Shown piece by piece: positions 2,804 through 28,879 of a stretch of 64,000 bases of DNA. The DNA comes from Actinomycetota bacterium (GTDB taxonomy: Bacteria > Actinomycetota > Acidimicrobiia > Acidimicrobiales > Ilumatobacteraceae): positions 2,938,514 to 3,002,513 of the forward strand of contig CP064997.1 in NCBI GenBank assembly GCA_016700055.1, written 5' to 3'. Every line of letters starts with the position of its first letter. Positions within the stretch are counted from its first letter, which is position 1. The notes under the pieces are model-generated. The model made no database searches. It saw only the letters and a program-made list of their open reading frames with translations, and was not told the DNA's origin. A program made the translations under genes and the position numbers.

Positions 2804-4890
2804 CCCGCCCGGCGTTGCACCGCTACGCCGTCGTCCACTTCCAGGTCGAGCCTGCCCGCGCGTGAGCAGAGCCCGCTGATGCGCAGCCAGGGCAGCCCGT
2901 CGAGGTCGTCGCGGCGTAGCTCGATGCCGTCGCGCGTCGGCTCGATGCCGAGCAACGCTCGCACGAGCAGCAGGATCGACGCCGAGGACCAGGCCTGGGG
3001 CGAGCAGGACGACGGATAGGGCACCGGAACCGGTACTTCGTCGCGGGAGATGCCGGCGAACAGCTCGGGCGGACGACCTCCGAAGTGCTCGACCGCGGCG
3101 AGCATGCCCTCGACGATCGTGTCGACGACGTCGAACCGACCGTACCGGGCGGCACCTGCGGCACAGATCGCGGTGTCGTGGGGCCAGACCGAACCGTTGT
3201 GATAGCTGAGCGGGTCGTAGGCCGCCATCGTGTCGGCGAGGGTGCGCACTCCCCATCCCGACCACAGGCCGGCGTCGCAGACACGGTCCAGGTAGCGGTC
3301 GGCGAGCTCGGGTTCGGCGATCCCCTTCCACAGCGCATGGCCGGGGTTGCTGGTGAGCGAGTCGATCGGGCGTCCGAATCCGTCGACGCCGAGGGCGTAC
3401 CAGCCGCGCTCGTCCCAGAGGACCTCGTTGCATCGTCCGCGCAGCTGCTGCGCGCGGGCGCGGAGGTCGGCGGCGTCGAAGCCGAGGGTGTCGACCCCGG
3501 CCGACTCGATCAGCTCGGCCGCGCCGAGCAACGCGTCGTAGACGTAGCCCTGTACCTCGATCAGGCCGATCGGAGGCACCGACAGCATCCCGTTCGCGAA
3601 CGTGACCCCGTCCCAGCTGTCCTTCCAACCCTGGTTCGTGAGCCCGCTCGGGCCACGGCGGCGGTAGTCGACGAAGCCGTCACCGTCGGAATCCCCGTAG
3701 CGGATGATCCAGCTCAGCGCGTCGCGCACCGACGGCGCGAGCTCGTGCAAGTCGTCGGCGTCGAGCGCTCCCCACCGCCAGGCCTCTGCGGTCAGACCGA
3801 CGAAGAGGGGCGTAGCGTCGACCGAGCCGAAGTAGCGCTGCCGCTCGGTGAACGCCCCACCGCCGCCCGGCCGGCGCAGCTCGTGCAGGATCTTGCCGGG
3901 CTGCTCGTCGGCCGCAGGGTCGTCGGCCCTGCCGCGCAGCTCGCCCAGCTCGCGCAAGGTCCCGGCGGCGAGGGACGAGTCGAAGGGCAGCGTCATCCAC
4001 GAGGTGAGCAGCGAGTCCCGTCCGAACAGCGTCATGAACCAGGGCGCCCCGGCCGCGACGACGACGCGCTCTGGGTGGCTGCGGTCGACGATCCGCAGGG
4101 CGGACAGGTCGGCGAAGGTCTGGTTGACCGCGGTGACGAGGCGCGGTTCGGTCGACTCGAGCGTCGGAGCCGCCGCTCTCCATTCGCGGTGGCGCACCAG
4201 CGGCAGGGCGTCGGCAGGAGCGGTCCCGATGGGGAAGGCGAGCCCGGCGGGCGAGCCGTCGACCACGGGCTCGACGGTCACCGTGAGGCGCACCGGCGCG
4301 CCGGCGGTGACCTCGACCGACCAGGCGAAGGTACCGCTGGCCACGTCCACCTCGTGCGGCGGGATCGAGAACGCGAGACGCGTCGCTGCCCGCGGCCCGC
4401 TGCGCTCCGTGCGCTCCAGGGCCCAGTGCCCGTCCACTTGTCGCAGAGCACACGCACCGCCGCCGCGCGCGGCCTTCACGTCGAACAGGTGGGCGAAGTC
4501 CGCGGCCACGGACAGGGTCACGTGCAGCGACCGCGGCGCGTGGCCGGTCTCCACGAGCTCGATCTCGTCGCGCAGGCCCCGGGCGATCCACCTCCGCCGG
4601 ACCATCAGGCAGCGGGTGGCGACGTCGTCTGCGTCGTGCAAGCGCTGCACCGACACCGAAGACAGCGGTGTGGGTGCCGTCGCGGCCAGCGTGTGCAGCC
4701 TGGCCCCGCCGACGGCGACGCGAAGGTAGGAGAGGTGGCGCAGGTCGTCGTAGATCAGCCCATGCGTGCCGCCGGTGCAGTTGCCGGAGAGCTCGGAGAT
4801 GACGAACGTGCGGCCGTCGACGAGGGTCAGCTCACCGGGGGAGCCGACAACCGGCACCGATTCCGCAGCGGCGTCGAGCGGCGACCTCAT
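2746..4890 (-). CDS. amylo-alpha-1,6-glucosidase / glycogen-debranching-enzyme-like protein (GDE N-terminal plus GDE_C-type catalytic domain)
   Basis: 714 aa; GAPWFMTLFGRDSLLTSWM, GKILHELR, GWKDSWDG, YHNGSVWPHDTA, PQAWSSAS motifs of the (alpha/alpha)6 GDE_C family; 3' end overlaps convergent LLM gene by 58 nt. Confidence 0.8.
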   Translation of the reverse strand: MRSPLDAAAESVPVVGSPGELTLVDGRTFVISELSGNCTGGTHGLIYDDLRHLSYLRVAVGGARLHTLAATAPTPLSSVSVQRLHDADDVATRCLMVRRRWIARGLRDEIELVETGHAPRSLHVTLSVAADFAHLFDVKAARGGGACALRQVDGHWALERTERSGPRAATRLAFSIPPHEVDVASGTFAWSVEVTAGAPVRLTVTVEPVVDGSPAGLAFPIGTAPADALPLVRHREWRAAAPTLESTEPRLVTAVNQTFADLSALRIVDRSHPERVVVAAGAPWFMTLFGRDSLLTSWMTLPFDSSLAAGTLRELGELRGRADDPAADEQPGKILHELRRPGGGGAFTERQRYFGSVDATPLFVGLTAEAWRWGALDADDLHELAPSVRDALSWIIRYGDSDGDGFVDYRRRGPSGLTNQGWKDSWDGVTFANGMLSVPPIGLIEVQGYVYDALLGAAELIESAGVDTLGFDAADLRARAQQLRGRCNEVLWDERGWYALGVDGFGRPIDSLTSNPGHALWKGIAEPELADRYLDRVCDAGLWSGWGVRTLADTMAAYDPLSYHNGSVWPHDTAICAAGAARYGRFDVVDTIVEGMLAAVEHFGGRPPELFAGISRDEVPVPVPYPSSCSPQAWSSASILLLVRALLGIEPTRDGIELRRDDLDGLPWLRISGLCSRAGRLDLEVDDGVAVQRRAGHPSSAGASSDVQKSTNPR

Positions 4891-6732: not shown

Positions 6733-7362
6733 TCATCTCCACATGTCGGCGATGCGCTGGTCGAGGCTGCGCACGACACCTGCCGGCACGGGAATGTCCG
6801 ACGAGAGCGCGAAGTGCAACAGGCTGGCGACGCGGTTGGGGCAGTTGCGGGCGCGCCGGAGCAGGTAGTCCCAGTCGAGCTCGGTGCCGGTCAGGATCGC
6901 CAGGGCGTCGTACCAGTGGCGCGGCGAGGTCTCGTCGGTGGTCGCCGCCTTGGTGACGATCAGGTCCTCCGGCGGAGCCACCGGCAGATCCACGCCGCGG
7001 AAGGTGATCCACCGGATCCGCTCGGCCATCTCGGCATCGAAGTAGATGTCGGACTTGATCTTGAAGATCACGTCGACCACGACGTCGTCGCGGAACGCCT
7101 TGTAGATCCACGCCGGATTCGTCTGCTCGACGAGGAAGCCCCCGCCGGCGAGGACGCTCAGCACGGCGTCGGCGGTCTCTGCCCGGCACAAGAAGTCGAT
7201 GTCGTTGGTGTGCCGCGGTCGACCGTAGGCGGCCGAGGCGACCCCGCCGATCACCGCGAAGGGGATGGCGGCCTCGTGGACGAGGCGCACCGATTCGGTG
7301 AGCACGGCGAGGAAGCTCCGATCCGAGGTCCGCACCTCTTCGATCTCACGCGCTGCGCGCAT
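6733..7362 (-). CDS. nucleotidyltransferase-fold protein (AbiEii/MNT-like GGxA...RxTxDIDF motif)
   Basis: FAVIGGVASAAYGRPRHTNDIDFLC matches the minimal NTase G-[GS]...D-x-D signature; overlaps GT4 stop by 17 nt. Confidence 0.6.
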   Translation of the reverse strand: MRAAREIEEVRTSDRSFLAVLTESVRLVHEAAIPFAVIGGVASAAYGRPRHTNDIDFLCRAETADAVLSVLAGGGFLVEQTNPAWIYKAFRDDVVVDVIFKIKSDIYFDAEMAERIRWITFRGVDLPVAPPEDLIVTKAATTDETSPRHWYDALAILTGTELDWDYLLRRARNCPNRVASLLHFALSSDIPVPAGVVRSLDQRIADMWR

Positions 7363-15897: not shown

Positions 15898-15969
15898 GGC
15901 GACGTGGCCGAGTGGCTTAGGCAAGGGCCTGCAAAGCCCTGTACAGGGGTTCGATTCCCCTCGTCGCCT
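15898..15969 (+). tRNA. tRNA-Cys (anticodon GCA)
   Basis: Hand-folded cloverleaf: acceptor GGCGACG/CGTCGCC, anticodon stem AGGGC/GCCCT with loop CTGCAAA, T-arm AGGGG-TTCGATT-CCCCT, discriminator T; CCA not encoded. Confidence 0.85.
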
Positions 15970-16004
15970 CTCTCCGCTCTCGAACACTCCGTCGCGAACG
16001 CGTT

Positions 16005-16053
16005 GTTCTCGGTCGGATTTGTGACACATAGCGCGACTCATCCGACCGAGAAC
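16005..16053 (+). repeat. 49-bp hairpin element, copy 1 (variant C at position 35)
   Basis: GTTCTCGGTCGGAT-TTGTGACACATAGCGCGACTC-ATCCGACCGAGAAC; 36 nt after tRNA-Cys, 7 nt from the stop of the minus-strand beta-helix gene. Confidence 0.95.
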
Positions 16054-16060
16054 GACGCCG

Positions 16061-17989
16061 TCACGGACGGCCCGGAGGGCGGCCGCCGCCGCCGAACATG
16101 CCGGTGCCGGCCTCACCAGGGGTCGTGGTGGCCACGAGCGTGCCTCCCGAATATTCGCCGCCCTCGATCAGGCCGTCGGTCGCCGTGCCGGTGCTGCTGC
16201 CGCCGACGTACACCTCGTACGTCGCGGCGGCATCGATCAGCTCGGACGAGACGACGATGGACGAGAACGGCTTGCTCGGCGAGAAGGTCACGATCGCCGT
16301 GCCGTCGGTCGACTGCACGTGCACGAGAGTGCCGGCCGCCTGGGTGGCGAACGTCGCCAGCACCGATTGCTGGGCGGACGACGTGCTCGGTGCCATCGCC
16401 ATGCCCGAGCTGCCGGTGGCGACCAGCAGGCCGCCGCTGATGTCGAACGTGCCGTCGTAGTCCAACGCCCCGTTCATGTCCTCGGTGGGGCCGTCGACGA
16501 TGACGGTCCCGCCGGACATCGTCACCGGGCCGTTGATGTCGAGGCCGTCGCCTCCGGCGATCACGACGACGGTGCCGCCTTCGACGGTCAAGCTGTAGTT
16601 GCCGCCGGCGAAGCCGTCGCCGCCACCGCCAGGCCCGGCCATGCCCGAGGCGTCGTTGCCTCCGGCCGCGTTGATGCCGTCGTCGCTGGCGACGATGTCG
16701 ATCCGCCCGCCGGTGATCGTGAGCGCGGCGCTCTCGAGCCCCTCGTACGAATCGGTCACGTTCACGCTGCCGCCGCTAACGAGGAGCGTGGCGTCGGCGT
16801 GCACACCGTCGTCTCCGGTCGACGCCACCACCTGGCCGGCGGCGATCACGACCGAGTCGTTGGAGTGGACGGCGTCGTCGGCTGCGTCGACGACCAGCGC
16901 GGAGCCGTCGACCACGACGCTCGCCGCACCCTTCACGCCCTTGGCCGAAGCGTCGGCTGCAATGGCGGCGTCGCTGCCATCGCCGGCCACGATCTCGACG
17001 TTGCCGCCGACGAGCACCACGTCGGTGCTCGCGTCCAGCCCGTCGCCTCCGGCGGTCACGTTCAGCGTGCCGCCTGCCACCGAGATCCAGCCGCGGGTGG
17101 CATCCTCGTCGTTGTCGGCCTTCACCCCGTCGCCCCCGGCGACGACGGTCACCGTGCCGGCGTCCACCGCGACGAAGTCCTTGCCGCGAATGCCGTCGTC
17201 GACGGCGTCGACCGTGATCGTGCCGCCGAGCACGACGAGTCCGTCCTTGCTGGCGATGCCGTCGTTGTAGGCGCCCTCGACCGCGAGCGAGCCGTTGCCG
17301 CCGATGGTGAGGTCGGCCGCGCTGAAGAGCGTCGCGTTGGGCTCGTCGGTGGAGGTGTCGGCGAACGTGTACGACGCCTCGTCGCTCAGGCGGTTCTCGG
17401 TGCCGTCGGCGAGCACGACGACCACCTCGTCGGCCGCGAGCACGGCGATGGGCGCGGTGGTGGAGCTGTGGATGTCGACGCCGTCGAGCACCAGTCGCAC
17501 GGTCCCTTCGCCGGCGGACTCGACGACCACCTGTCCGTCGGTCAGTGTGCCGCTCAGCACGTACGTGCCTGCAGCAGAGATCGTCACCGTCGAGCCGTCC
17601 ACGCTCACGCCTTCGCCGGAGGCGGTGGCGCTGTCGCCGCCGAGCACGATCTCCGCCGCGTCGTCGGCGTTCCAGTCGAGGTCGTCGGCCTGGTCGTGGC
17701 GCTCGCTGTTGGCGGCCAGGGTCTCGGCGCCGACACCGGTGGAGTCGGTTGCCTGCGCGGCCACCTCGGTGACGGTGCCGTCGGCGTCGCCGGAGGCCTC
17801 GTCCGTGGTGCCGCCGGTGTCGTTGGCCGTGTCGTCCGAGGTGTCGCCGGTGGTAGCTGCGTTCGTGTCGTCGGTGCCGGTTGTGGTCTCGACGGCGATG
17901 CTGTCGGTCGTGTCGGTGCTCGTCGAGCACGCGGCCAGTGCCGACAGGGCGAGGGTGCCGGCGAGGGCGAGGTTGCGGATGCTTCGCAT
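16061..17989 (-). CDS. secreted lipoprotein with repetitive parallel beta-helix-like region (Cthe_2159-type carbohydrate-binding family)
   Basis: Lipobox LALSALAAC; Asp/Thr-rich linker; recurring DDG[IV]x and GGDG[LV]xA motifs (DDGIASKDG, DDGIRGKD, GGDGVKAD, GGDGLDAS, DDAVHSND, DDGVHADA, DDGINAAGG, GGDGLDING); GAAGGAAAG RBS. Confidence 0.7.
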   Translation of the reverse strand: MRSIRNLALAGTLALSALAACSTSTDTTDSIAVETTTGTDDTNAATTGDTSDDTANDTGGTTDEASGDADGTVTEVAAQATDSTGVGAETLAANSERHDQADDLDWNADDAAEIVLGGDSATASGEGVSVDGSTVTISAAGTYVLSGTLTDGQVVVESAGEGTVRLVLDGVDIHSSTTAPIAVLAADEVVVVLADGTENRLSDEASYTFADTSTDEPNATLFSAADLTIGGNGSLAVEGAYNDGIASKDGLVVLGGTITVDAVDDGIRGKDFVAVDAGTVTVVAGGDGVKADNDEDATRGWISVAGGTLNVTAGGDGLDASTDVVLVGGNVEIVAGDGSDAAIAADASAKGVKGAASVVVDGSALVVDAADDAVHSNDSVVIAAGQVVASTGDDGVHADATLLVSGGSVNVTDSYEGLESAALTITGGRIDIVASDDGINAAGGNDASGMAGPGGGGDGFAGGNYSLTVEGGTVVVIAGGDGLDINGPVTMSGGTVIVDGPTEDMNGALDYDGTFDISGGLLVATGSSGMAMAPSTSSAQQSVLATFATQAAGTLVHVQSTDGTAIVTFSPSKPFSSIVVSSELIDAAATYEVYVGGSSTGTATDGLIEGGEYSGGTLVATTTPGEAGTGMFGGGGRPPGRP

Positions 17990-18053
17990 GGGTGTCTTTC
18001 CTTCAGAGGTGGGGGAGGGGGTGAACGGGGAACTTGCGCGGACGGCGCGGCCG

Positions 18054-18812
18054 TCAGGCGAGGGCGGTCCAGGGGTGGAGCGACAGGGCGCGGTGCCACT
18101 TGTTGCGGGGTAGGTCGGGGTGCAGCGTCGCCATGCCCATCGCGAACTTGCTGACCTTCAGGGGTCGGATGTGCATCGCCCAGAGGGCACGATCCACGTC
18201 GCTCGGGCCGTGCGGGGTCTTCGTCTCCACGATGACGGTGTGCGCCGGCCCGGCTGTTCGCGCTCCGGTGCTGCACCTGAGGCCGATGTCGATCGTGGCC
18301 CGCGAGCCGCCGGTGACGATCGTGCTGCGGTCGTAGCGGGTGGTGAGCACCGGCTCCAGCCCGGGCAGGCATGGCTGCACCAGCTCGAAGCCCGAGAGGA
18401 ACGCCCGGGACCCGTCCGTGAGCGTGCCCGCTAGCGATGCAGGGTGCGGGTGGCGGTGCTTCACGGTGCGGCCGCGGGCGTCACGCAACTTCACCTCGAC
18501 GAAGCAGGCACCGGAATCGAGGTACCTGCGGGTACGCACCTTGAAGCGCCGCGGACGCCGGTGGGCCGCACCGAGGTACGAGTCGAGGGCCGGCGTGTCG
18601 AAGTACCGGGACTCGTAGCCGAACGACCGCCGCCCGTCGACGTCGAGGGCCCTGGAGGAGTCTCCCACCAGCGACAACAAGCCGGTGAACTGCTCGGGAG
18701 TGAGCAGGTACTTGCGGTCCGTGCGGGTCTGGAGCCGGGCGAACTCGTCGAGCTCGTCGAGCGTCACTGGGGCGAGCGCAGCAAGGGTTCGGTCCAACGT
18801 CGTCGCCCTCAT
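18054..18812 (-). CDS. VTC-domain protein (polyphosphate-polymerase/triphosphate-tunnel-like)
   Basis: RTDRKYLLTP, YESRYFDTP, RRFKVRTRRY, CFVEVKLRD, beta-strand Arg/Lys/Glu pattern of the CYTH/VTC tunnel fold. Confidence 0.8.
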   Translation of the reverse strand: MRATTLDRTLAALAPVTLDELDEFARLQTRTDRKYLLTPEQFTGLLSLVGDSSRALDVDGRRSFGYESRYFDTPALDSYLGAAHRRPRRFKVRTRRYLDSGACFVEVKLRDARGRTVKHRHPHPASLAGTLTDGSRAFLSGFELVQPCLPGLEPVLTTRYDRSTIVTGGSRATIDIGLRCSTGARTAGPAHTVIVETKTPHGPSDVDRALWAMHIRPLKVSKFAMGMATLHPDLPRNKWHRALSLHPWTALA

Positions 18813-19417
18813 CGCAGCATCTCGAGCTCGCTCGGCCCGGTGGTACCGCCGCCGGCCGGCCCGCTGGTCGCCCTCACCGGTACCTCGTAGCGAACGTCGA
18901 CGACGGTCGTGTCGTTCACCAGGTCGACCTTGCGGACGGTGAAGCGGTGCACGGTGGCGCCGAGCAGGTCTTCGAGGCGGGCCTGGAGCACAGGCTCGCT
19001 CACGTACGCGTGGTCGAGGGTCACGATCTGGTGGCGGTACCGGCCGAACAGCGCGGGGTGATCACCGACGAACATGACGACGACGATGGCCGCCATCAGC
19101 GCCGGGCTGAGCCAGCCGGGCGACACCGCGAAGCCGCCGAGCAGGCCAAGGGCCAGCGCGCCGAAGAAGTAGGCGATCTCGTGCTGGTCCATCTCGGCCG
19201 AGCGGAGTCGGATGATCGACAGCACGCCGAACAGGCCGAGCCCCAGCCCGGCGCTGAGCTCGGCCGACGACAACGCCTGCGTCACGCCGAGGACCCCGAC
19301 GTTGATTCCGAGGTACGCGACGACCATGTCGCGGCGCCGGTGGCGGGGGAAGTAGACGCCAAGTACCAGGAGGGAGACGGCGACGAGGTCTAGGGCGAAG
19401 AGCAGGGCCAGTGACAT
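18809..19417 (-). CDS. DUF4956-family membrane protein
   Basis: Multi-span N-terminus with ...GVLSIIRLRSAEMDQHEIAYFF... signature region; ATGA overlap with the VTC gene. Confidence 0.75.
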   Translation of the reverse strand: MSLALLFALDLVAVSLLVLGVYFPRHRRRDMVVAYLGINVGVLGVTQALSSAELSAGLGLGLFGVLSIIRLRSAEMDQHEIAYFFGALALGLLGGFAVSPGWLSPALMAAIVVVMFVGDHPALFGRYRHQIVTLDHAYVSEPVLQARLEDLLGATVHRFTVRKVDLVNDTTVVDVRYEVPVRATSGPAGGGTTGPSELEMLR

Positions 19418-19548
19418 TGGGTGGCTCCGATGGTCGGGGGCGAACGTTGGCGTCCGCTGTCTGGTGAGTCACCCGCAGGTCTACGCAGCGAAGCTGAGCG
19501 TCGGCTGTGAGCCACCGCACAGGATCCCTGGACCGCGTGCTCACCTTC

Positions 19549-19597
19549 GTTCTCGGTCGGATTTGTGACACATAGCGCGACTGATCCGACCGAGAAC
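19549..19597 (+). repeat. 49-bp hairpin element, copy 2 (variant G at position 35)
   Basis: Identical to copy 3; lies in the divergent gap between DUF4956 (start 19417) and the VOC gene (start 19630). Confidence 0.95.
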
Positions 19598-19629
19598 GCG
19601 CTGGCGGACGGCGGGTTTAACGTGCTGGG

Positions 19630-19971
19630 GTGGCTGAGGTGATGGTGCCGATCTTCAGAGTCGCCGACGCCCGGGCGGCTGCGCAGTGGTACGCCCGGAT
19701 GGGGTTCCGTGTCGCCGGCGAGCACCGATTCGCGCCAGGCCTGCCGCTCTACCTCTTCTTGGAGCGAGGGGGCGTGTGGCTGCACCTCTCCGAGCACCTC
19801 GGAGACGCGACGCCCAACACGCTCGTGTACTTCTGGGTCGACGACGTCGACGCCATCGCCGCCGAGTTCGCCGCCGAGGTGCACGAGGAGCCTTGGGCTC
19901 GAGAGATCGAGCTGACCGATCCAGACGGCAACCGGCTGCGCGTCGGCACGCGTTCTCGGTCGGATTTGTGA
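19630..19971 (+). CDS. VOC-superfamily protein, bleomycin-binding (Ble/BLMA)-like
   Basis: VPIFRVADARAAAQWYARMGF and NTLVYFWVDDVD...EEPWAREIELTDPDGNRLRV parallel the Sh ble family as I recall it; start GTG 19630 or ATG 19642; last 6 codons and TGA lie inside repeat copy 3. Confidence 0.7.
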   Translation: MAEVMVPIFRVADARAAAQWYARMGFRVAGEHRFAPGLPLYLFLERGGVWLHLSEHLGDATPNTLVYFWVDDVDAIAAEFAAEVHEEPWAREIELTDPDGNRLRVGTRSRSDL

Positions 19972-20000
19972 CACATAGCGCGACTGATCCGACCGAGAAC
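19952..20000 (+). repeat. 49-bp hairpin element, copy 3 (variant G at position 35)
   Basis: Overlaps the last 20 nt of the VOC ORF; followed by GAAGGGGGG and the amidohydrolase ATG 26 nt later. Confidence 0.95.
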
Positions 20001-20026
20001 GAAGGGGGGTCGTAAGGTCGGCGGGC

Positions 20027-20917
20027 ATGCCAGGCATGTCGCAAATCACGAGCATCGGCGCGATCGACACCATGATCGGGTTTCCGCACCGGGACATGAA
20101 GGCGCTCTACAAGTTCATCACCGACCAGGTGAAGGACCGTGAGTCCAAGGACGAGTTCGAGTTCCCCGCCGAGTACATGTTCAAAGACGTCCCCGACAAG
20201 CAGCTGCGCACCGAGGAGGACCCCGTCGGCGTCACCCTGCGGGAGATGGACCGCTGGGGGATCGCGCGGGGGATGATCGGCGTCGGCGACGAGGCCGGGC
20301 TCGGCGAAGAAGCGCTGCGCCGGCATCCCGACCGCTTCATCCCGTCGGCAAGCGTCGACCCGAACCGGGGGATGGAGGGGATCCGCGAGATCGTGCGCCT
20401 CCACGAGACCTACGGCATCCGCGCTGTCGGGGTGTTCCCGTCGGGCACGTTCCCGCAGGTCGCGATCAACGACAAGCTGATGTACCCGATCTACGCGAAG
20501 TGCTGTGAGCTCGACATCGCCTTGTTCTGCTGCGCGGGCGTGCCTGGCCCGCGCCTGCGGATGGCACCCCAGCGGGTGGAGCTGATCGACGAGGTGATGT
20601 ACGACTTCCCCGACCTGCGCTTCGTCACCCGCCACGGCTGCGAACCGTGGACGGAGCTCGCCGTGAAGCTGATGCTGAAGTGGCCGAACCTCTACTACTC
20701 GACGTCGGCATTCGCCCCCAAGCACTACCCGAAGGCGATCATCGACTACGCCAACACGCGCGGTGCCGGCAAGATCATCTACGCCGGCTACTTCCCGATG
20801 GGGCTCTCGCTGGAGCGGATCATGACCGAGATGGAGCAGGTGCCGTTCAAGGCCGAGGTGTGGCCGCAGTTCCTGCGCGACAACGCCGCCAAGGTGCTGA
20901 AGCTCGACGGCGCCTGA
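20027..20917 (+). CDS. amidohydrolase-2 family protein (ACMSD-like metal-dependent hydrolase/decarboxylase)
   Basis: 296 aa; AIDTMIGFPH, RAVGVFPSG, TRHGCEPW, IYAGYFPMG, FLRDNAAKVL pattern. Confidence 0.7.
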   Translation: MPGMSQITSIGAIDTMIGFPHRDMKALYKFITDQVKDRESKDEFEFPAEYMFKDVPDKQLRTEEDPVGVTLREMDRWGIARGMIGVGDEAGLGEEALRRHPDRFIPSASVDPNRGMEGIREIVRLHETYGIRAVGVFPSGTFPQVAINDKLMYPIYAKCCELDIALFCCAGVPGPRLRMAPQRVELIDEVMYDFPDLRFVTRHGCEPWTELAVKLMLKWPNLYYSTSAFAPKHYPKAIIDYANTRGAGKIIYAGYFPMGLSLERIMTEMEQVPFKAEVWPQFLRDNAAKVLKLDGA

Positions 20918-20965
20918 CCGCACCCGGCCTGAACCCGCTGGACCATGTCGCCCTAGGGTGAGCAC

Positions 20966-21304
20966 ATGAGCGATTCGACCCAGCCCGTGACGCGCCTCGA
21001 CGACGTCGAGTCACTCGTGGCGGTACAGCCCGACAGCACCCTTTCGCGGGTCGTGCTGCAGGCCCCCGGTGCCCGCGTGGTGCTGTTCGCGTTCGACGCC
21101 GGCCAGGAGCTCACCGAGCACACCGCGAGTGTGCCCGTGCTGTTGCAGGTGCTCTCCGGCGAGCTCGAGGTGAGCGCCGGTGGGGAGACGTTCGACCTTC
21201 GCCCGGGCGGCCTCGCGCATCTCGAGGGCAAGCTGGCCCACTCCGTAGTCGCCCGCGAGCCGACGGTGCTCCAGCTCACGATGCTGCAGCCGCAGGCCGG
21301 CTGA
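20966..21304 (+). CDS. cupin-domain protein
   Basis: 112 aa; FDAGQELTEHTASVPVLLQVLSGELEV...GGLAHLEGKLAHSV fits the two cupin motifs. Confidence 0.65.
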   Translation: MSDSTQPVTRLDDVESLVAVQPDSTLSRVVLQAPGARVVLFAFDAGQELTEHTASVPVLLQVLSGELEVSAGGETFDLRPGGLAHLEGKLAHSVVAREPTVLQLTMLQPQAG

Positions 21305-21394
21305 GCTCCGCTCGCCGTCACCCGAGGGCGTCGCGTTACGGTGCGAGCCGGCGCGGGCGGATCAGCCCGGCCAGGTCCGCCAAGGGGGCACGAA

Positions 21395-21682
21395 GTGATC
21401 AAGGTCAGCGTTCTGTATCCGGCCGGCGACGGCATCACGTTCGACATGGACTACTACAAGACCAAGCACATGGAGATCGTCCAGCGGGTGATGCCCGGGC
21501 TGCGCAAGGTCGAGATCGACAGCCGTGTCGACGGCCCCTACATCGCCGTCGGGAACCTCTACTTCGACTCGCTCGAAGCTCTCGGCGCGGCGATGGGCGG
21601 TGCCGGCGAGGCGATGGCCGACGTCGTCAACGTCACGAACGCGCAGGCGGTGCTGCAGACGTCCGAGGTCGTCACCGGCTAG
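21395..21682 (+). CDS. EthD-family protein
   Basis: Start set to GTG 21395 (VIKVSVLYP...) 6 nt after AAGGGGG; FDMDYYKTKHMEIV and NLYFDSLEAL typical of EthD/TIGR02118-like proteins. Confidence 0.65.
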   Translation: MIKVSVLYPAGDGITFDMDYYKTKHMEIVQRVMPGLRKVEIDSRVDGPYIAVGNLYFDSLEALGAAMGGAGEAMADVVNVTNAQAVLQTSEVVTG

Positions 21683-21728
21683 GTCGTCACGGGCTGGGTC
21701 GTTTTCGGGCTGGGTCGCCGCGGGCTGG
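21668..21728 (+). repeat. four tandem about-15-nt units GTCG-N-CGGGCTGG spanning the EthD stop codon
   Basis: GTCGTCACCGGCTAG / GTCGTCACGGGCTGG / GTCGTTTTCGGGCTGG / GTCGCCGCGGGCTGG read directly. Confidence 0.7.
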
Positions 21729-21739
21729 CCCGCTCTTGC

Positions 21740-22972
21740 TCAGCCCTGCGTGCCCACCAGCAGGTCGCGGAAGGGCACGTCGCGATCGACCGCTGGTTCG
21801 CGGGGCAGGCCGAGCACGCGGTCACCGATGATGTTCTTCTGGATCTCGTCGGTGCCGCCGGCGATGCTCGACTGGAAGCTGTTCAGCATGATCCTTGCCC
21901 AGTTCTCGGCGCGGTCCCCGGGCATCCACGCGTCGGAGTCGTGGCCGAGGACATGGCTGATCAGGGGACGGCAGATGCGGGCGATCTTCGCGCCGTGCAG
22001 CTTGCCGAGCGATCCGCCCGGGCCCGGCGCCTTGCCGGCCTTCAGCTCGGCGCGGGTGCGCATCGACACGAGCGACTTCGTGAGCTCCTCGCTGTAGAGC
22101 GCCATCAAGCGCTGGCGCAGCACGGGGTCGGTGATCGTGCCCCGCCGAGTGGCCTCCGCGATCAGCATGTCCGCGTTCGGGTGGCTCACCCCGCTCGTCG
22201 CGCCGGTGCCGATCGCGACGCGCTCGTACATCAGCATCGCCGTGGCCTGGTTCCAGCCGTTGTTCAGCTCGCCGAGCAGCCAGTCGGCGGGGATGCGGGC
22301 ATCGGTGAGGAAGACCTCGTTGAAGTGGCTGCCACCGTCGATCTGGTGGATGGGCCGGATCTCGACGCCCGGGCCGCGCATGTCGAGGATGAACATCGAG
22401 ATGCCGGCGTGCTTCGGCGCGTCGGGATTGGTGCGGGCGATGATCACGCCGAACTCGCAGTGATGGGCCAACGTGGTCCACACCTTCTGACCGTTCAGCA
22501 CCCACTCGTCGCCGTCGCGCACGGCCTTCGTCTGGAGGCTCGCCACGTCGCTGCCCGCACCCGGCTCGGAGAACATCTGGCACCACAGCTCCTCACCGGA
22601 GATGTTCTTCGGGAGGAACCGTGCCTTTTGCTCGTGGGTGCCGAAGTCGTTGAGCACGGGTAGGCACATGCCGTGGCTGATCGTCAGCTCGAACGTCATG
22701 TTCGGGTAGTGGGCGTACTCCTCGCGCCAGATGCGCTCGTGGGCTCGGGTCAGCCCGGCGCCGCCGAACTCGGCCGGGTACGCCAACCCGGCGAGGCCGG
22801 CCTCGGCCAGCGCCTTCTGGAACCGGCGGCCAGCGGTCAGTGATCTGTCGCCACGCGACTCGGGCCCGCCAGAGCTGATGCCTGTGGCGTGGGCGTCGAG
22901 GAACTCCCGACACCGGGTCCGGAAGGCCTCTGCCTCGACGGCGCTCAGCTCGTCCTCGGTGCTCGTGCTCAT
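21740..22972 (-). CDS. acyl-CoA dehydrogenase
   Basis: Start trimmed to ATG 22972 (MSTSTEDELSAVE); WCQMFSEPGAGSD, GQKVWTT, GGTDEIQKNIIG motifs. Confidence 0.9.
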   Translation of the reverse strand: MSTSTEDELSAVEAEAFRTRCREFLDAHATGISSGGPESRGDRSLTAGRRFQKALAEAGLAGLAYPAEFGGAGLTRAHERIWREEYAHYPNMTFELTISHGMCLPVLNDFGTHEQKARFLPKNISGEELWCQMFSEPGAGSDVASLQTKAVRDGDEWVLNGQKVWTTLAHHCEFGVIIARTNPDAPKHAGISMFILDMRGPGVEIRPIHQIDGGSHFNEVFLTDARIPADWLLGELNNGWNQATAMLMYERVAIGTGATSGVSHPNADMLIAEATRRGTITDPVLRQRLMALYSEELTKSLVSMRTRAELKAGKAPGPGGSLGKLHGAKIARICRPLISHVLGHDSDAWMPGDRAENWARIMLNSFQSSIAGGTDEIQKNIIGDRVLGLPREPAVDRDVPFRDLLVGTQG

Positions 22973-23033
22973 GCGGTGGATGCTTGCACGCGCCGCCGCG
23001 TTATGGGGAACCCGGGAAGTGGTCGCGTAGCGA

Positions 23034-24575
23034 TCAGCCGGGGCGAGCGCCGAGGGCGGGCCAGGATCCCAGCTGATCCAGGGCACGCACGGTGGAGGGC
23101 ACCGCCGCTCGCGGCACCGGGTGGCTGATCAGGAAACCCTGCGCCTTGTGGCAGCCGAGCTCGCCGAGGATCTGGAGCTGGCGGACGTCCTCCACCCCCT
23201 CGGCCACCGTGTCGAGCCCCAGCGAGCGCCCCATGGCGACGATCGCGCGCACCAGCGAGCGCGCGCTCGGGTCGGTGGCGAGCCCGCACACGAAGGCCTG
23301 GTCGATCTTCAACCGGTTGATCGGGAACCGCTGGAGCAGCGACAGCGACGAATAGCCGGTGCCGAAGTCGTCGATCGCGATCCGTACGCCGAGCGCCCTG
23401 ATCCGGCGCAAGGTGGCGAGGGCCTGCTCGGGCTCGGTCACCATCACCCCCTCGGTCACCTCCAGCCAGAGCTGGCGCGCCGGCACGCCGGAGCGGATGA
23501 GCGCTTCGTTGACGATGCCGAGGAAGTTCGGGTCGCGGAGCTGTCTCGGCGACACGTTGACCGACATCGACGCCATCGGCCCGCACTCGCCTTCGTCGAT
23601 CCACGAACGCAGGTGGGTGAGCGCTTCGACGAGCGCCCAGGACCCGATCGGCACGATCGTGCCGGTCTCCTCGGCGATGGGGATGAACTCCCCTGGCGGC
23701 ACGAACGTGCCCTCCGCGCGCTCCCAGCGCATCAGCGCCTCGAACCCGTCGACGTCACCGTGCTCGATGTCGATGACCAACTGGTGATACAGCCTCAGCT
23801 CGTCGTGCTCGAGTGCCCTGTAGAGCGCGGTCTCCGTGGCAAGGCGGTGCGACGCGCTGTGCAGCATCGACTCGTCGTACAAGGCGATGCTGTTGCGGCC
23901 ACGGTTCTTGGCCCGGTACATCGCCGCGTCGGCGGCGCGCAGCAGGTCGTCTGCATACTCGTTCGCGTTCGGGTTGGCGCTCGCGACCCCGATGCTCGGC
24001 GTGACGAAGAGATCGCCCGTGCGCAGCGTGATCGGCTCGCGAAAGGCATCCAGCACCTTGTCGGCCAACGCCATCGCGGCGTCGGGACCGCTCGATCCGG
24101 GGTCGAGCACGACGAACTCGTCACCGGCGATCCGCCCGACCGTCGCGCCCGCGGGGACGACGTCGAGCAGCCGGGCGGCGACCGTGGTGAGCACGATGTC
24201 ACCGACGGCGTGCCCGAGGCTGTCGTTGATCGTCTTGAACCGGTCGAGGTCGATGAACAGCACCGCCGGCCGGCGCCCGGACTCCCAGGAAGCAGCCAAC
24301 GCGCCGGAGATCATCTCGATCAGCAGCGCCCGGTTCGCCAGCTCGGTCAGGGGATCGGTGTGGGCGGACTGGCGCAGTGCGGCGTGCTCACGGTTGCTGG
24401 CCCTCGACCGATGCGCGGCCCGCGCGGCAACCGCGAGCACGGCGGCGATGGCGAGCGCGCGAGCGGCCACGCCCCGTGCACTCCAGAAGACGATCCACAC
24501 CCCGACCAGCGCCACCGCGCCGTCGACAAGGGCGCCCGAGGACCAGAACCTCCCGTGCCCACGTTCGGTAGCCAT
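23034..24575 (-). CDS. membrane-anchored GGDEF-EAL protein (c-di-GMP turnover)
   Basis: Start trimmed to ATG 24575 (MATERGHGRFW); two TM spans; RIAGDEFVV (AGDEF variant of GGDEF); EALMRW, DDFGTGYSSL, KIDQAFV EAL motifs. Confidence 0.9.
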   Translation of the reverse strand: MATERGHGRFWSSGALVDGAVALVGVWIVFWSARGVAARALAIAAVLAVAARAAHRSRASNREHAALRQSAHTDPLTELANRALLIEMISGALAASWESGRRPAVLFIDLDRFKTINDSLGHAVGDIVLTTVAARLLDVVPAGATVGRIAGDEFVVLDPGSSGPDAAMALADKVLDAFREPITLRTGDLFVTPSIGVASANPNANEYADDLLRAADAAMYRAKNRGRNSIALYDESMLHSASHRLATETALYRALEHDELRLYHQLVIDIEHGDVDGFEALMRWERAEGTFVPPGEFIPIAEETGTIVPIGSWALVEALTHLRSWIDEGECGPMASMSVNVSPRQLRDPNFLGIVNEALIRSGVPARQLWLEVTEGVMVTEPEQALATLRRIRALGVRIAIDDFGTGYSSLSLLQRFPINRLKIDQAFVCGLATDPSARSLVRAIVAMGRSLGLDTVAEGVEDVRQLQILGELGCHKAQGFLISHPVPRAAVPSTVRALDQLGSWPALGARPG

Positions 24576-24672
24576 GTGACCACGCAATGTAGTTTCAGTC
24601 GGTGATCGAACGTGGGAATGGTCGCTGCGGGGTACGGTGTGCCACCACGCCGCGGCGCTGGCCAAACACCAC

Positions 24673-25629
24673 ATGACAACACGAGCCTCCACCGCCTCCG
24701 TCGTCGTCCCCGGTTCGCACCTCATGCCCGCGCTGCTCGGCACGCGTGACGCACATCTGCGCCGCATCGAGGCTGCGTTCCCCGACACCGAGATCCACGT
24801 GCGCGGCAACGAGGTGTCCCTCAGTGGCGCCGGCGCCGCCGCCGTCGGGCACCTGCTCGAAGAGCTCGTGCTCCTGCTGCAGCGCGGCGAGCCACTCGAC
24901 GACGCCACCATCGGGCGCAGCATCGACATGATCCGCGCCGACGAGCGGCCGAGCACGGTCCTCACCGACGACATCATGCGCAGTGCGCGCGGGCGGTCGA
25001 TCCGCCCCAAGACCGCCGGGCAGAAGCGGTACATCGATGCCGTCCGGGCGAACGTGATCACGTTCGGCATCGGCCCGGCCGGCACGGGCAAGAGCTGGCT
25101 CGCGGTGGCGATGGCGGTCCAGGCCTTGCAGGCCAAGGCGGTGCAGCGGATCATCCTCACCCGGCCCGCGGTCGAAGCCGGCGAGCGTCTCGGATTCCTG
25201 CCCGGCGACCTGATGGCCAAGGTCGACCCGTACCTACGCCCGCTGTACGACGCGCTCTACGACATGCTCGAACCCGACGGTGCCCAGCGGATGCTCGAGC
25301 GCCAGGCGATCGAGGTGGCACCGCTCGCGTTCATGCGGGGGCGCACCTTGAACAACAGCTTCATCATCTTGGACGAGGCCCAGAACACGACGCCGGAGCA
25401 GATGAAGATGTTCCTCACGCGCATCGGCTTCGGGTCCAAGGTCGTGGTCACCGGCGACGTCACCCAGATCGACGTCCCCGACGGGCGCAGCGGTCTCGCC
25501 GGGTTGGAGCGCATCCTCACCGACATCGACGGGCTCGCGTTCGTGCACCTGACTGCGGCAGACGTAGTGCGGCACCGCATCGTCGCCGACATCGTCGCCG
25601 CGTACGAGAGAGGCCCGACCGGTGGGTGA
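24673..25629 (+). CDS. phoH: PhoH-family ATPase
   Basis: GPAGTGKSWLAVAMAV Walker A, ILTRPAVEAGERLGFLPGDL, IILDEAQN; start ATG 24673. Confidence 0.9.
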   Translation: MTTRASTASVVVPGSHLMPALLGTRDAHLRRIEAAFPDTEIHVRGNEVSLSGAGAAAVGHLLEELVLLLQRGEPLDDATIGRSIDMIRADERPSTVLTDDIMRSARGRSIRPKTAGQKRYIDAVRANVITFGIGPAGTGKSWLAVAMAVQALQAKAVQRIILTRPAVEAGERLGFLPGDLMAKVDPYLRPLYDALYDMLEPDGAQRMLERQAIEVAPLAFMRGRTLNNSFIILDEAQNTTPEQMKMFLTRIGFGSKVVVTGDVTQIDVPDGRSGLAGLERILTDIDGLAFVHLTAADVVRHRIVADIVAAYERGPTGG

Positions 25630-26221
25630 GGCGTCCCGGCCACGCCTCGGCAGGCAGCGCCGCGTCGGTGGCGACGAGGCGGCCGAGGTGTTCTGCGCCG
25701 ACGAGCAGACCGAGGTGCCCGTCGACGTGGCGCGCTGGCAGCGTCTTGCCGAAGCGGTGCTCGTGGCCGAAGGCGTGCGCGGGGGCACCGAGCTCTCGCT
25801 GCTGTTCATCGACCGAGCGTCGATCACCGAGCTCAACGAGACCCACCTCGGCGCCGCGGGGCCGACCGACGTGCTCTCGTTCCCGATCGACGCCGGTGAG
25901 CTGGTGGAGATCGTCGCCGGCCCCGGAGGGGCGACCCGCGGGCCCGACCGCCCGCCCGGCGACCTGAGCGACCTGCCGCTGCTGCTCGGCGACGTGGTCA
26001 TCTGCCCCGCCGTCGCCGCGGAGCAGGCCGGCGGGCACGCAGGCACCATCGAGGACGAGCTGGCCCTGCTCGTGGTGCACGGCATCTTGCACGTGCTCGG
26101 TCACGATCACGCCGAGCCGGACGAGGCCGCCCGCATGCGCCGGCGTGAGCTCGAGCTGTTGGAGGCCCACCACTGGGGTGCTCCGCCGCCGGCCGGTTTC
26201 CGCCAGGAGCACTCGGCATGA
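25622..26221 (+). CDS. ybeY: rRNA maturation endoribonuclease YbeY
   Basis: HGILHVLGHDH zinc motif; GTG 25622 overlaps phoH end by 8 nt (start not certain). Confidence 0.9.
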   Translation: MGEASRPRLGRQRRVGGDEAAEVFCADEQTEVPVDVARWQRLAEAVLVAEGVRGGTELSLLFIDRASITELNETHLGAAGPTDVLSFPIDAGELVEIVAGPGGATRGPDRPPGDLSDLPLLLGDVVICPAVAAEQAGGHAGTIEDELALLVVHGILHVLGHDHAEPDEAARMRRRELELLEAHHWGAPPPAGFRQEHSA

Positions 26222-27591
26222 TCGCGGCCTCGTTCACCTCCGTCGATCTCGTCATGGCGATCGTGATCGTGCTGCTGCTGTTCATCCTCGTGCTGCTCGC
26301 CGTCGCCGAAACCTCGCTGAACCGGATCTCGCGGGTGAAGGCGAAGGCGATCGCCGAATCGAGGGGCACCAAGGCGGCGCAGTCGCTAGAGCGCCTCGTC
26401 ACGCATCCGGAGCGGTTCATCAACCCGGTGCTGGTGACGATCACGTTGTGCCAGACCGGTCAGGCGTTCCTCACCTCGCTGCTCGCCTCCCGGCTGTTCG
26501 GGGCGGTCGGGGTGGCGGTCGCCTTCTTGCTCAACGTGGTCGTGTTCTTCGTGGTGTCCGAGGCGATGCCGAAGACATGGGCGGTGCTGTCGGCCGAGCG
26601 CGCGGCGCTCGCCACGGCCCGGTTCACCGAGGCGCTGGTCAACTTCCCGCCGCTGCAACTGCTCTCCCGGGGCTTGATCGGGTTGACGAACGTCCTGTTG
26701 CCCGGCAAGGGGCTGAAGCAAGGCCCGTTCGTCTCGGAGCAAGAGCTGCTCGGGATCGTCGGTGCCGCCGCCGACGACGAGGTGATCGAGCACGAGGAGC
26801 GCGAGCTGATCGAGTCGATCATCGAGTTCGGCGACACCGTGGCTCGCGAAGTGATGGTGCCGCGACCCGACATGGTCGTCGTGAGCAGCTCGGAGAGCGT
26901 CACCGCCACGCTCGACCTCGCGCTCGAGCACGGCTTCTCCCGCCTGCCGGTGGTGCAAGAGGACGGCGACGACGTGATCGGCCTCGCGTACACGAAGGAC
27001 TTGATGCAGGCGGAGCGCACCGGCGGCGGGTACCGCCCGGTCACCGAGTTCTTGCGTCCGGTGCGGTTCATCCCCGAGAACAAGGCCGTCGCTCGGCTGA
27101 TGCGCGAGATGCAGGCCGAGAAGGCGCACCTCGCGATCGTCGTCGACGAGTACGGCGACATCGCCGGGCTGGTCTCGCTGGAGGACTGCCTCGAGGAACT
27201 GGTCGGCGAGATCCACGACGAGTACGACAACGAGACCGCCGAGGTCGAGGCGCTGGACGACGGCGGCTACCTCGTCGACGGCGGCACCAGTGTGTCTGAC
27301 CTGAACGAGCTGCTCGGCCTCGGCCTGCCCGACGAGGAGTGGGACACGGTCGGCGGGTTCGTGTTCGGCACGCTGGAACACGTACCGGTACCCGGCGAGA
27401 CGGTGGACCACGAAGACTGGCGCTTCCTGGTCGAAGAGGTGGAAGGGCGCCGTGTCCGCCGGGTGCGGGTCAGTGCGATCGGTGCCCGCCACCGCCACTT
27501 GGGCCATCACCACGCCGAGCCCGACCCCGGCGAGCGTCACGCCGACCCGCTGGTCGCCGACGAACCCTCCAGTTCTCGGTCGGATTTGTGA
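26218..27591 (+). CDS. hemolysin-family CNNM/CorC protein (DUF21 TM domain, CBS pair, CorC_HlyC)
   Basis: ATGA overlap with ybeY; domain order read from sequence; the last 20 nt incl. TGA lie inside repeat copy 4. Confidence 0.9.
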   Translation: MIAASFTSVDLVMAIVIVLLLFILVLLAVAETSLNRISRVKAKAIAESRGTKAAQSLERLVTHPERFINPVLVTITLCQTGQAFLTSLLASRLFGAVGVAVAFLLNVVVFFVVSEAMPKTWAVLSAERAALATARFTEALVNFPPLQLLSRGLIGLTNVLLPGKGLKQGPFVSEQELLGIVGAAADDEVIEHEERELIESIIEFGDTVAREVMVPRPDMVVVSSSESVTATLDLALEHGFSRLPVVQEDGDDVIGLAYTKDLMQAERTGGGYRPVTEFLRPVRFIPENKAVARLMREMQAEKAHLAIVVDEYGDIAGLVSLEDCLEELVGEIHDEYDNETAEVEALDDGGYLVDGGTSVSDLNELLGLGLPDEEWDTVGGFVFGTLEHVPVPGETVDHEDWRFLVEEVEGRRVRRVRVSAIGARHRHLGHHHAEPDPGERHADPLVADEPSSSRSDL

Positions 27592-27620
27592 CACATAGCG
27601 CGACTCATCCGACCGAGAAC
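27572..27620 (+). repeat. 49-bp hairpin element, copy 4 (variant C at position 35)
   Basis: Identical to copy 1; between convergent CorC-like and MFS genes. Confidence 0.95.
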
Positions 27621-27631
27621 GGAGGGGCGCG

Positions 27632-28879
27632 CTAGGCCGCCGCTAGCGCTTCGGCGCGGGCTAGTGCTGCCGGCCGCACCGGCCAGGCGCCCACGACCAG
27701 CGCGACGAGGGTGACCACGCCTCCGGCGATGAACGGGGCCCTGATGTCGACGTGGTAGGCCAGCTGGCCGCCGATCAACGCACCGATCGCCACCGATCCG
27801 GTGCCGAGCCAGCGGAAGATGCCGTTCACGCGGCCGAACAAGTGCTTGGGGATGAGCCGTTGGCGAAGCGACACCGAGATCACGTTCCAGACCGTCGTCG
27901 CCATGCCTTCGGCGGCCGCGATCAGCGCCACCATCCACACGCTCGTGGCCAGCCCCATCGCGATCTGGCACATCCCGAACGCGAAGTAGGCGCCGAGCAG
28001 AGCTGACGACGAGCCGAGGCGCTCGGCGAAACGATCGCCGAGCAGACCACCGGCAACTGCGCCGAGAGCCATCACCGCGAGCAGCAGGCCGTACCCGCGC
28101 TCGCTGACCCCCAGCTCCTCGGCCGCGAACTTGACGAACACCGCGTATCCGAAGTGCAGGCCGAGGTTCACCGCGGCGAGCAGCATCGCGAGGCTGAGCA
28201 GCAGGGGGCTGGCGAACAGCCAGCGGAATCCGTCGGAGAGCTCGGTGCGGAATGGGCTCGGCAGTTTGGACGAGGTGGGAGCCGAACCCGGCGCGAACCG
28301 GATGCTGGCGATCAGCGCCGCCGCCAGCAGGAAGGAAGCGGCGTTGATGCCGAAGGGCAGCCCGATCATCGCCACGAACAGCCACGCCCCGATCGGCAGC
28401 CCGACGAACCCGTTGCCGACGACCTCGGTGGCGTACAGGATCCCGTTCGCTCTCGGGAGCTGCTCCGGTTGGACGATCGACGGCAGGAAGGCTTGCGCCG
28501 TGCTGTCGAACAGCACCTCGCCGATGCCGACCCCGACCAGGATGACGAGCAGCCCCTCGATCCCGAGGCGACCGGTGGCTGCGCCGACGGCGATCACGGC
28601 GAACAGCGCCGCGCGCACGACGTTCGCGATGACCATCGTGTGCTGGCGGTCCCAGCGGTCGATCCAGACTCCGATCGGCAACGAGAAGATGAGCCAGGGC
28701 AACGAGGCGGCGAACGTCACCGCGGCGATCATCCGGGCGTCGTCGGTGAGGCTGTACGCGAGCAGCGGCATCGCGGCCAGGTTCATGCCGTCACCGGTGT
28801 TCGACACTGCGGTGGCGCCCCACTGGCGCCAATAGGCGGACGGTAGACGCGCCGGGTCTGCCGCGCGGCCAGCCCTCAT
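27632..28879 (-). CDS. MFS transporter
   Basis: Start trimmed to ATG 28879 (MRAGRAADPARL); about 12 hydrophobic spans; upstream ORF portion is poly-Arg junk. Confidence 0.8.
   Translation of the reverse strand: MRAGRAADPARLPSAYWRQWGATAVSNTGDGMNLAAMPLLAYSLTDDARMIAAVTFAASLPWLIFSLPIGVWIDRWDRQHTMVIANVVRAALFAVIAVGAATGRLGIEGLLVILVGVGIGEVLFDSTAQAFLPSIVQPEQLPRANGILYATEVVGNGFVGLPIGAWLFVAMIGLPFGINAASFLLAAALIASIRFAPGSAPTSSKLPSPFRTELSDGFRWLFASPLLLSLAMLLAAVNLGLHFGYAVFVKFAAEELGVSERGYGLLLAVMALGAVAGGLLGDRFAERLGSSSALLGAYFAFGMCQIAMGLATSVWMVALIAAAEGMATTVWNVISVSLRQRLIPKHLFGRVNGIFRWLGTGSVAIGALIGGQLAYHVDIRAPFIAGGVVTLVALVVGAWPVRPAALARAEALAAA

Follow-up and report, generated by a model that had tools for sequence, protein, structure and literature searches.

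A REP/REPIN-like family of dispersed hairpins in an uncultured wastewater Acidimicrobiia bacterium and a glyoxalase-family gene bracketed by two of its copies

Most of what is known about dispersed hairpin repeats of the REP/REPIN type comes from Proteobacteria. RecA-dependent joins at such short dispersed palindromes give rise to REP-mediated duplications and deletions, and the insertion sequences IS1397 and ISKpn1 insert into REP loops. Other small palindromes include the Correia elements of Neisseria and the Rickettsia palindromic elements, which are ~100 to 150 bp long and have terminal inverted repeats, the Correia elements also having a TA target duplication. REP and REPIN elements are found together with RAYT transposases in Enterobacteria and Pseudomonas (PMC3116915, PMC3337134), and REPINs combine conserved ends with a less conserved centre in which compensatory changes preserve the hairpin (PMC3116915). 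In a literature search, no such repeat was found described for Actinobacteria or Acidimicrobiia. The hairpins reported here, which were noticed in a 64,000-nucleotide stretch of DNA (the window, analysed over its whole length), are a REP/REPIN-like dispersed repeat family of an uncultured Ilumatobacteraceae-like Acidimicrobiia bacterium, and an ordinary repeat family.

Like REP and REPIN elements, the hairpin is a short dispersed palindrome present in ~10^2 copies, mostly at gene ends, with species-specific sequence variants and with no target duplication seen; none of the four window copies has a direct target duplication beside it. As in REPINs, conserved ends surround a variable centre kept paired by compensatory changes, a property seen here in a sister family. 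Unlike REPINs, however, the halves of the present element are not themselves REP palindromes, and the centre in this species is a conserved non-palindromic loop of 21 nt. A further difference from REP and REPIN elements is that the present copies often extend over the final codons of genes, and the host is a member of the Acidimicrobiia. No RAYT (a Y1 HUH transposase) was found among the ~50 window genes or between the oppositely oriented pairs of copies on contigs L093 and L103. With the Correia and Rickettsia palindromic elements the hairpins share the habit of small non-coding palindromes that enter genes, supply stops and C-terminal residues, and are candidate substrates for recombination, but the present element is only 47 to 51 nt long, shows no duplication, and forms SRSDL* fusions in a single frame. 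The result is a well-populated family in uncultured wastewater Acidimicrobiia, accompanied by a covarying sister family.

A family of dispersed hairpins

The window is a housekeeping stretch with a GC content of 70% and with hyp, trp, fab, and tRNA-synthetase genes. It contains four copies of the element, all on the plus strand (Table 1), compared with 0 copies expected in 64 kb from dinucleotide shuffles. Each copy forms a hairpin with a stem of 14 to 16 bp and a conserved loop of ~21 nt, in which the arms are GTTCTCGGTCGGAT and ATCCGACCGAGAAC and the loop is TTGTGACACATAGCGCGACT(G/C); the DNA folding z-scores of the four hairpins range from -3.5 to -6. A search of Rfam with the hairpin gave no match at the gathering threshold nor at an E value of 1 or below. 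Copies 2 and 3 are 51-nt direct repeats that are 100% identical (19548-19598 and 19951-20001) and whose starts are 403 bp apart, whereas copies 1 and 4 carry one C-for-G substitution in the loop. The stems of copies 1 and 4 are lengthened by their own flanks, which are GCGTTG and CGACGC in the case of copy 1, whereas in copies 2 and 3 the gain from their own flanks consists of the shared C-G/G-C pairs only. Copy 1 is located 35 nt past the tRNA-Cys gene and 8 nt before the stop of a minus-strand Cthe_2159-like gene. This part of the original prediction was accurate: two identical direct copies, with starts 403 bp apart, enclose only the Ble/VOC-like open reading frame of 113 codons, they share a G variant that copies 1 and 4 do not have, and folding bears out that the stems of copies 1 and 4 run into their own flanks and those of copies 2 and 3 barely do.

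Table 1. Positions of the element copies, flanks, genes, and promoter-like motif (window coordinates unless a contig is named)
Feature	Position	Strand	Remarks
tRNA-Cys	15898..15970	+	just upstream of copy 1
Element copy 1	16006..16052	+	47-nt core TTCTCGG..CCGAGAA, C variant
DUF4956 gene	18809..19417	-	first gene of the DUF4956-VTC-Cthe_2159 operon, divergent from VOC
Left flank of copy 2, CCTTCG	19544..19549	+	complement of 20000-20005
Element copy 2	19550..19596	+	G variant; matches copy 3 across 19548-19598
TAACGT, -10-like box (TANNNT)	19618..19623	+	6 nt before the GTG start of VOC; read from sequence
VOC / Glyoxalase_7 gene	19630..19971	+	113 codons; codons 109-113 (SRSDL) and TGA encoded by copy 3
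Element copy 3	19953..19999	+	G variant
Right flank of copy 3	20000..20015	+	CGAAGG pairs with 19544-19549
Amidohydro_2 gene	20027..20917	+	directly after copy 3
CNNM-CBS-CorC_HlyC gene	26218..27591	+	complete; ends ..SSRSDL* on the loop TGA of copy 4
Element copy 4	27573..27619	+	C variant; between the convergent CorC/CNNM gene and MFS gene
Fused genes	window 26218-27635; L082:2186, L084:2852, L094:6665, L100:1772, L110:2826		tail ..SRSDL*

The 20-mer of the loop was present on 33 metagenome contigs, and with variant loops included 51 occurrences were collected, 36 of which were distinct. Unitig depth across the element is ~30 to 100 times that of its flanks, and a genome is therefore expected to hold roughly a hundred or more copies. 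The host organism was detected in activated-sludge, digester, and wastewater runs. Exact-pattern scans of the GTDB representative genomes, using a 33-mer and the 20-mer loop, found no copies; the species is without a representative in that set. A related metagenome-assembled genome (MAG), CAZMGD01, contained 50 copies in which the 11-bp terminal stem is unchanged and the interior is different and itself palindromic, and a third interior variant was present in WHTX01. These sister families (L115 to L168 in CAZMGD01; L129, L132, L134, and L139 in WHTX01) all keep the stem TTCTCGGTCGG..CCGACCGAGAA around their differing interiors. Covariation was measured in the sister family, the window's own family being too uniform for such a test: among the 50 copies in CAZMGD01, the pair 22-47 occurs as UA (13 copies), CG (10), GC (9), and AU (5), and the covariation score was above that of all 500 of 500 shuffles. 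Two orthologous copies (L095:1356-1402 and L093:2991-3037), whose flanks are 97.6% identical, differ at three positions at the loop edge (T..TC versus C..GG, with one added C-G pair), a difference that is consistent with gene conversion between copies.

Copies are placed between genes, except for 6 of 31 that reach into the final codons of a gene and provide its stop. Of 13 distinct pairs of neighbouring copies, 11 have both members in the same orientation (window 16006-27619 and contigs L082, L083, L084, L093, and L109). A relation between element orientation and the replicated strand was considered and dropped, as the comparison with GC skew gave 9 of 19 on short contigs. The segments between copies hold 1 to ~7 genes on both strands, and single genes are bracketed by copies 850 to 1,540 bp apart on six contigs (L082, L083, L084, L093, L103, and L109).

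The location of many copies at the 3' ends of co-oriented genes, the stable stem, the conserved loop, and the covarying stem of the sister family are also what would be expected of functional RNA or DNA structures maintained by site-by-site selection, for example as terminators, mRNA-stabilising structures, or protein-binding sites, in which case the pair around the VOC gene would mark transcript boundaries. This explanation is considered unlikely, since dozens of near-identical copies, together with the different interior in the related MAG, point to recent spread, and since the hairpins have no T-run and no Rfam match and copy 2 lies between divergent starts. Selection of this type is compatible with either origin of the bracket discussed below and is thus not a rival to either.

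The bracketed VOC gene and gene-end fusions

The sole open reading frame between copies 2 and 3 that is supported by codon usage encodes a protein of 113 amino acids that, judged by its sequence, belongs to Pfam Glyoxalase_7, with a VOC fold and a distant likeness to Ble. Its initial designation as bleomycin-binding-like is correct as far as that distant likeness goes and does not extend to membership of the NCBIfam family BLMA, for which the protein scores 26.8 bits against a cut-off of 140; Ble chains in the PDB match it at an E value of ~1e-4 only. The -10-like box ends so close to the GTG start codon (6 nt) that the transcript is predicted to be leaderless, and the same arrangement was found upstream of VOC homologues at four other loci. 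The protein had 1100 homologue matches, typically 70 to 82% identical. The homologues finish with ..NRLRVGTR and another 1 to 5 residues, and 60 of them have tails of GTR plus 1 to 5 residues and lengths of 109 to 112 amino acids; here, GTR is followed by SRSDL and TGA, both from copy 3.

Gene-end fusions of this kind recur in the family. At 6 of 31 distinct copies, a gene supported by codon usage extends into the element and terminates on the loop TGA, always in one frame, and among these six genes neither the TAG-stop frame nor the read-through frame of the element is used. The count of six is the one obtained after a GC3/GC2 filter, as open-frame length alone overcounted. The family thereby rewrites the C-terminal ends of real genes in one frame, and it also marks gene-order differences between strains.

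Removal of the 47-nt core (TTCTCGG..CCGAGAA) from copy 3 results in a VOC protein that ends ..RVGTREGGS*, in frame, with a length of 112 amino acids, in agreement with the tails and lengths of its homologues. After the same removal from copy 4, the CorC-type gene ends ..ADEPSSGGAR*, with its stop on a CTAG that is shared with the convergent MFS gene, and a small palindrome, CCCTCC-AGC-GGAGGG, is left behind. These reconstructions suggest that the 47-nt core is the mobile unit and that it would land at G|CG without target duplication, the flanks being native. The removal rule is imperfect: at five fused loci, a stop follows within 8 codons in three when 47 nt are removed versus two when 51 nt are removed, and fused loci other than those above fit 51 nt equally. 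The in-frame TAA restored to VOC could also be a coincidence (a 1-in-3 frame), because TAAGGT (20013-20018) resembles a -10 box of the next gene as well, being located 8 nt before the ATG (20027) of the amidohydrolase gene. No single-element insertion polymorphism was seen among the sequences compared, so we infer the inserted unit, and likewise how insertion occurred and in which order the events took place.

There is about an even chance that the bracket arose when a resident VOC gene received two ordinary element insertions. Under this proposal the 47-nt core would spread as a unit, landing at G|CG without duplication of the target, often in the last codons of a gene, the end of which would then become ..SRSDL-TGA, and in some cases in the middle of a small palindrome already there. 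Targeting of palindrome centres would resemble the behaviour of IS1397 and ISKpn1, and copies 1 and 4 appear to have inserted in this way. VOC would have been a leaderless glyoxalase-family gene residing at the locus before the insertions, one of which would have entered its last codons, displacing a native ..GTR-EGGS-TAA, and the other of which would have landed ~33 nt 5' of the start codon. The bracket would then be a by-product of high element density, and the 6-bp complementarity of the outer flanks would be a coincidence. Once in place, the identical direct copies 2 and 3 could act as a substrate for homologous recombination or slippage able to delete VOC. Two insertions account for the fusion at the end of the gene, for the stop recovered by core removal, for the presence of VOC in every spanning assembly, and for the many other genes that are bracketed, but they leave a split 12-nt palindrome (see below) as a coincidence of 1 to 3%. 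Against residence of the gene stands the finding that VOC, its left neighbours, and its right neighbour are without synteny in any relative examined.

Flank complementarity and the origin of the bracket

The family has a flank consensus, CCCCCGCG to the left of the core and CGCGGGGG to its right, so that some pairing is to be expected between whichever left and right flanks are compared. Across 23 distinct copies, the mean perfect-pair run was 1.70 bp for the copies' own flanks versus 1.58 bp for the flanks of other copies, and in 18 distinct copies the energy of flank extension was -7.4 kcal/mol (own) versus -7.8 kcal/mol (other). The flank columns of the sister family are mostly unpaired, with the exception of C/G runs. 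Pairing of at least 6 bp between a copy's own flanks was found in only 2 of 23 copies; stem extension of the type seen in copies 1 and 4 is an exception among intact copies.

The outer flanks of the VOC pair, CCTTCG to the left of copy 2 and CGAAGG to the right of copy 3, are perfectly complementary and, when joined without the insert, form the perfect 12-nt palindrome CCTTCG|CGAAGG. This pairing is in the top 2.6% of cross pairs, with p values of 0.013 to 0.035 versus random partners that retain the consensus CG, and it is carried by T(-3)/T(-4) and A(+3), bases that occur at no other locus of the family. When the left flank of copy 2, the core, and the right flank of copy 3 are combined, the chimeric hairpin is more stable than either actual copy by 6 kcal/mol. 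The inner pairing, between the left flank of copy 3 and the right flank of copy 2, consists of the consensus CGCG and bulged pairs (p ~0.14 given the consensus). An 11-mer, GCGCTGGCGGA, that the right flank of copy 2 has in common with the flank of an element on L083 was rejected as a common coding word with 4 unrelated matches. Crosswise pairing was absent in the other neighbouring co-oriented pairs (L082, L083, L084, L093, L109, and copies 1-2 and 3-4 of the window).

The original prediction relied on both sets of flank matches and suggested looking for crosswise complementarity at other element pairs. The match of the outer flanks was confirmed and is unusual (p ~0.01 to 0.03), whereas that of the inner flanks reduces to the family consensus CGCG and is not significant; in the wider comparison, own and cross pairing were no different across 23 copies, and neighbouring pairs showed nothing similar. 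Intact copies seldom have flanks like those of the VOC pair, and therefore the pattern favours a split element over coincidence, but only by ~3- to 13-fold. Should the segments between elements prove immobile, the lesson would be that consensus flanks make crosswise complementarity of a few bases weak evidence.

A split element would be the outcome of a capture event without a dedicated recombinase, which is possible though doubtful. A unit composed of an element, 31 nt, and VOC would have recombined into a single element at CCTTCG|CGAAGG via ~50 nt of homology. That single element might, with the same reserve, have sat between the DUF4956 operon and the amidohydrolase gene, with two hybrid copies as the result, and the donor might, again tentatively, have been looped out between two direct copies elsewhere or have arrived as incoming DNA of a relative. 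Apart from the outer palindrome and the better fold of the chimeric hairpin, capture is favoured by the copy-specific palindromes in which both of the single window copies (1 and 4) sit and by the minimal nature of the VOC unit, with a 31-nt leader that carries its own -10 box and an open reading frame fused to the element. The closest VOC homologues (78 to 82% identity) are found in four unrelated contexts without flanking repeats, and their dispersal is likewise in keeping with capture, as are the strain breakpoints and read depths described in the next section. However, with so few copies showing own-flank pairing of 6 bp or more, a split element predicts the observed pattern weakly, the inner flanks are uninformative, and the other adjacent pairs offer no parallel. 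Capture also requires more events than two insertions, plus an unusual resident copy, and under it the in-frame, native-like stop obtained by core removal would be a coincidence. The likelihood ratios of the two-insertion and capture readings roughly cancel, and parsimony slightly favours independent insertions.

The element-VOC-element arrangement was present with the same flanks in every assembly of the species that spans the locus (at least 11, at 96 to 99.4% identity; L001, L110/L201, L187/L194, L191-L197, and L202). Neither an empty single-element site nor a second location of VOC, both of which had been proposed as signs of capture, was found in these at least 11 independent assemblies, and this counts against capture. 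One contig that begins at the element opens with the VOC-side CGCG. Between strains, VOC differs at 13 of 406 positions and its flanks at 28 of 978 and 25 of 1029; VOC diverges as the flanks do, and the arrangement therefore predates the divergence of the strains. Exact-protein look-ups of the flanking genes led to Logan unitigs that stop in the element or to spanning contigs, all of which contained VOC. There was no synteny at 80 orthologous loci of the amidohydrolase gene, hence no empty or ancestral site among them, and none at six loci of the VTC protein, all from Micrococcales and less than 50% identical. The capture model as first formulated is supported by the dispersed element, the outer palindrome, and the exchange of flanks between strains, whereas the inner pairing, the lack of an empty site, and the native-like end of VOC go against it.

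In formal terms the VOC pair resembles an integron cassette, namely, a gene bounded by two co-oriented imperfect hairpins from which an excised circle would carry one hairpin. To our knowledge, integrons have not been reported in the host phylum. That a dedicated recombinase of the tyrosine, serine, or HUH type uses the hairpins as attC-like sites to excise and integrate the genes between them is very improbable. The local co-orientation of neighbouring copies, the several single genes bounded by copies, and the conservation of the hairpin by covariation would fit such a system, but the ~50 window genes contained no match to Phage_integrase or to any other recombinase or transposase, and no IntI, attI, or Pc accompanies the pair, with VOC having a -10 box of its own. 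The element ends read GTTCTCG..CGAGAAC and not RYYYAAC..GTTRRRY; unlike attC, the element has GTT at its 5' end and AAC at its 3' end, with the adjoining pyrimidines and purines in the wrong order, and the attC analogy of the original prediction finds no R''/R' core sites here. Unlike integron arrays, the copies are scattered over the chromosome, including throughout a core region with hyp, trp, and fab genes, they overlap the ends of core genes, and the segments between them comprise housekeeping genes and multi-gene operons on either strand.

A more general possibility, also improbable, is that the hairpins serve as portable recombination sites, such that genes and operons between co-oriented copies loop out and re-enter at other copies. 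VOC would be one cassette among others, and its excised state would be what lowers the depth in runs X25 and X38, which is improbable to a similar degree. If this were true, the family would provide integron-independent shuffling of gene cassettes.

Strain differences and read depth at the elements

Contigs from three metagenomes (L094:6560-6800, L100:1680-1930, and L104:690-940) show the combinations a-E-b, c-E-d, and a-E-d around one element. In L100 the element is flanked on the left as in L104 and on the right as in L094, and both joins fall inside the element; the pattern represents either recombination between strains at the element or a contig that is chimeric at the repeat. A second difference of ~290 nt, between L083 (3934-4243) and L099 (5108-5129), has its boundary exactly at the left arm of an element, CTCGCG. 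These breakpoints at elements support capture of VOC, although the exchanged flanks might be due to chimeric assembly at a repeat. Unlike those of REP-mediated rearrangements, the join-points here come from the comparison of metagenome contigs. The additional DNA in L083 corresponds to the 3' part of an alpha/beta-hydrolase gene and includes a terminator-like hairpin of its own (3958-3999), which was considered as a second repeat family and rejected, as its sequence is unique and it is probably a terminator. Three other indels, of 2.7 kb (L084/L111), 828 nt (L087/L101), and 960 nt (a deletion in L083), were not bounded by elements.

Linkage of VOC to its surroundings is invisible in unitigs because 31-mer unitigs break inside the element, and apparent unitig joints across 19597-19950 come from other element copies and are meaningless. 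For one strain, the depths of the operon, VOC, and the right flank were 53:58:60, 25:29:27, and 16:19:18 in three runs, versus 61:13:32 in X38 and 21:0:7 in X25. Run X25 is labelled RNA, yet its depth is an even 12 to 21x over 20 kb; the library type of X38 is not known. The deficit in these two runs (window 19571-23370) also spans the next unitig of 3.4 kb, which has no element on its right edge, and it may reflect a VOC-less allele or a structural polymorphism with its left edge at copy 2. Low depth of VOC relative to both flanks (13 versus 61 and 32; 0 versus 21 and 7) is a further point for capture, tempered by its origin in one RNA-labelled run and one run of unknown type. Along with the flank exchanges between strains, if these are not assembly chimeras, the low VOC depth in two runs suggests that the repeats recombine. 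If segments between elements are indeed mobile, the family would offer a simple source of variation in gene content within an abundant and poorly studied group.

Several features of the window and of the contigs compared with it are separate from the question of the bracket. The Cthe_2159-VTC-DUF4956 operon, which follows tRNA-Cys directly and occupies the interval from copy 1 to copy 2 (15898-19417 region), has relatives among GTDB representatives in Micrococcales only, at less than 50% identity, which suggests that it is an acquired island. Strains differ in length by 36 nt (17808-17845) in the repetitive Cthe_2159-like gene and by 40 nt (21687-21728) in the spacer before an acyl-CoA dehydrogenase gene. 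A strain-specific insertion of 2.7 kb (L084:3375-6069) carries a restriction-modification-like methyltransferase, and a strain-specific island of 828 nt (L087:8763-9591) lies beside a tRNA gene; both are unrelated to the element. An AbiEii/DUF2204-type nucleotidyltransferase (6733-7362) and a PIN-domain gene (57391-57804), which are located amid the housekeeping genes of the window, may be toxin components.
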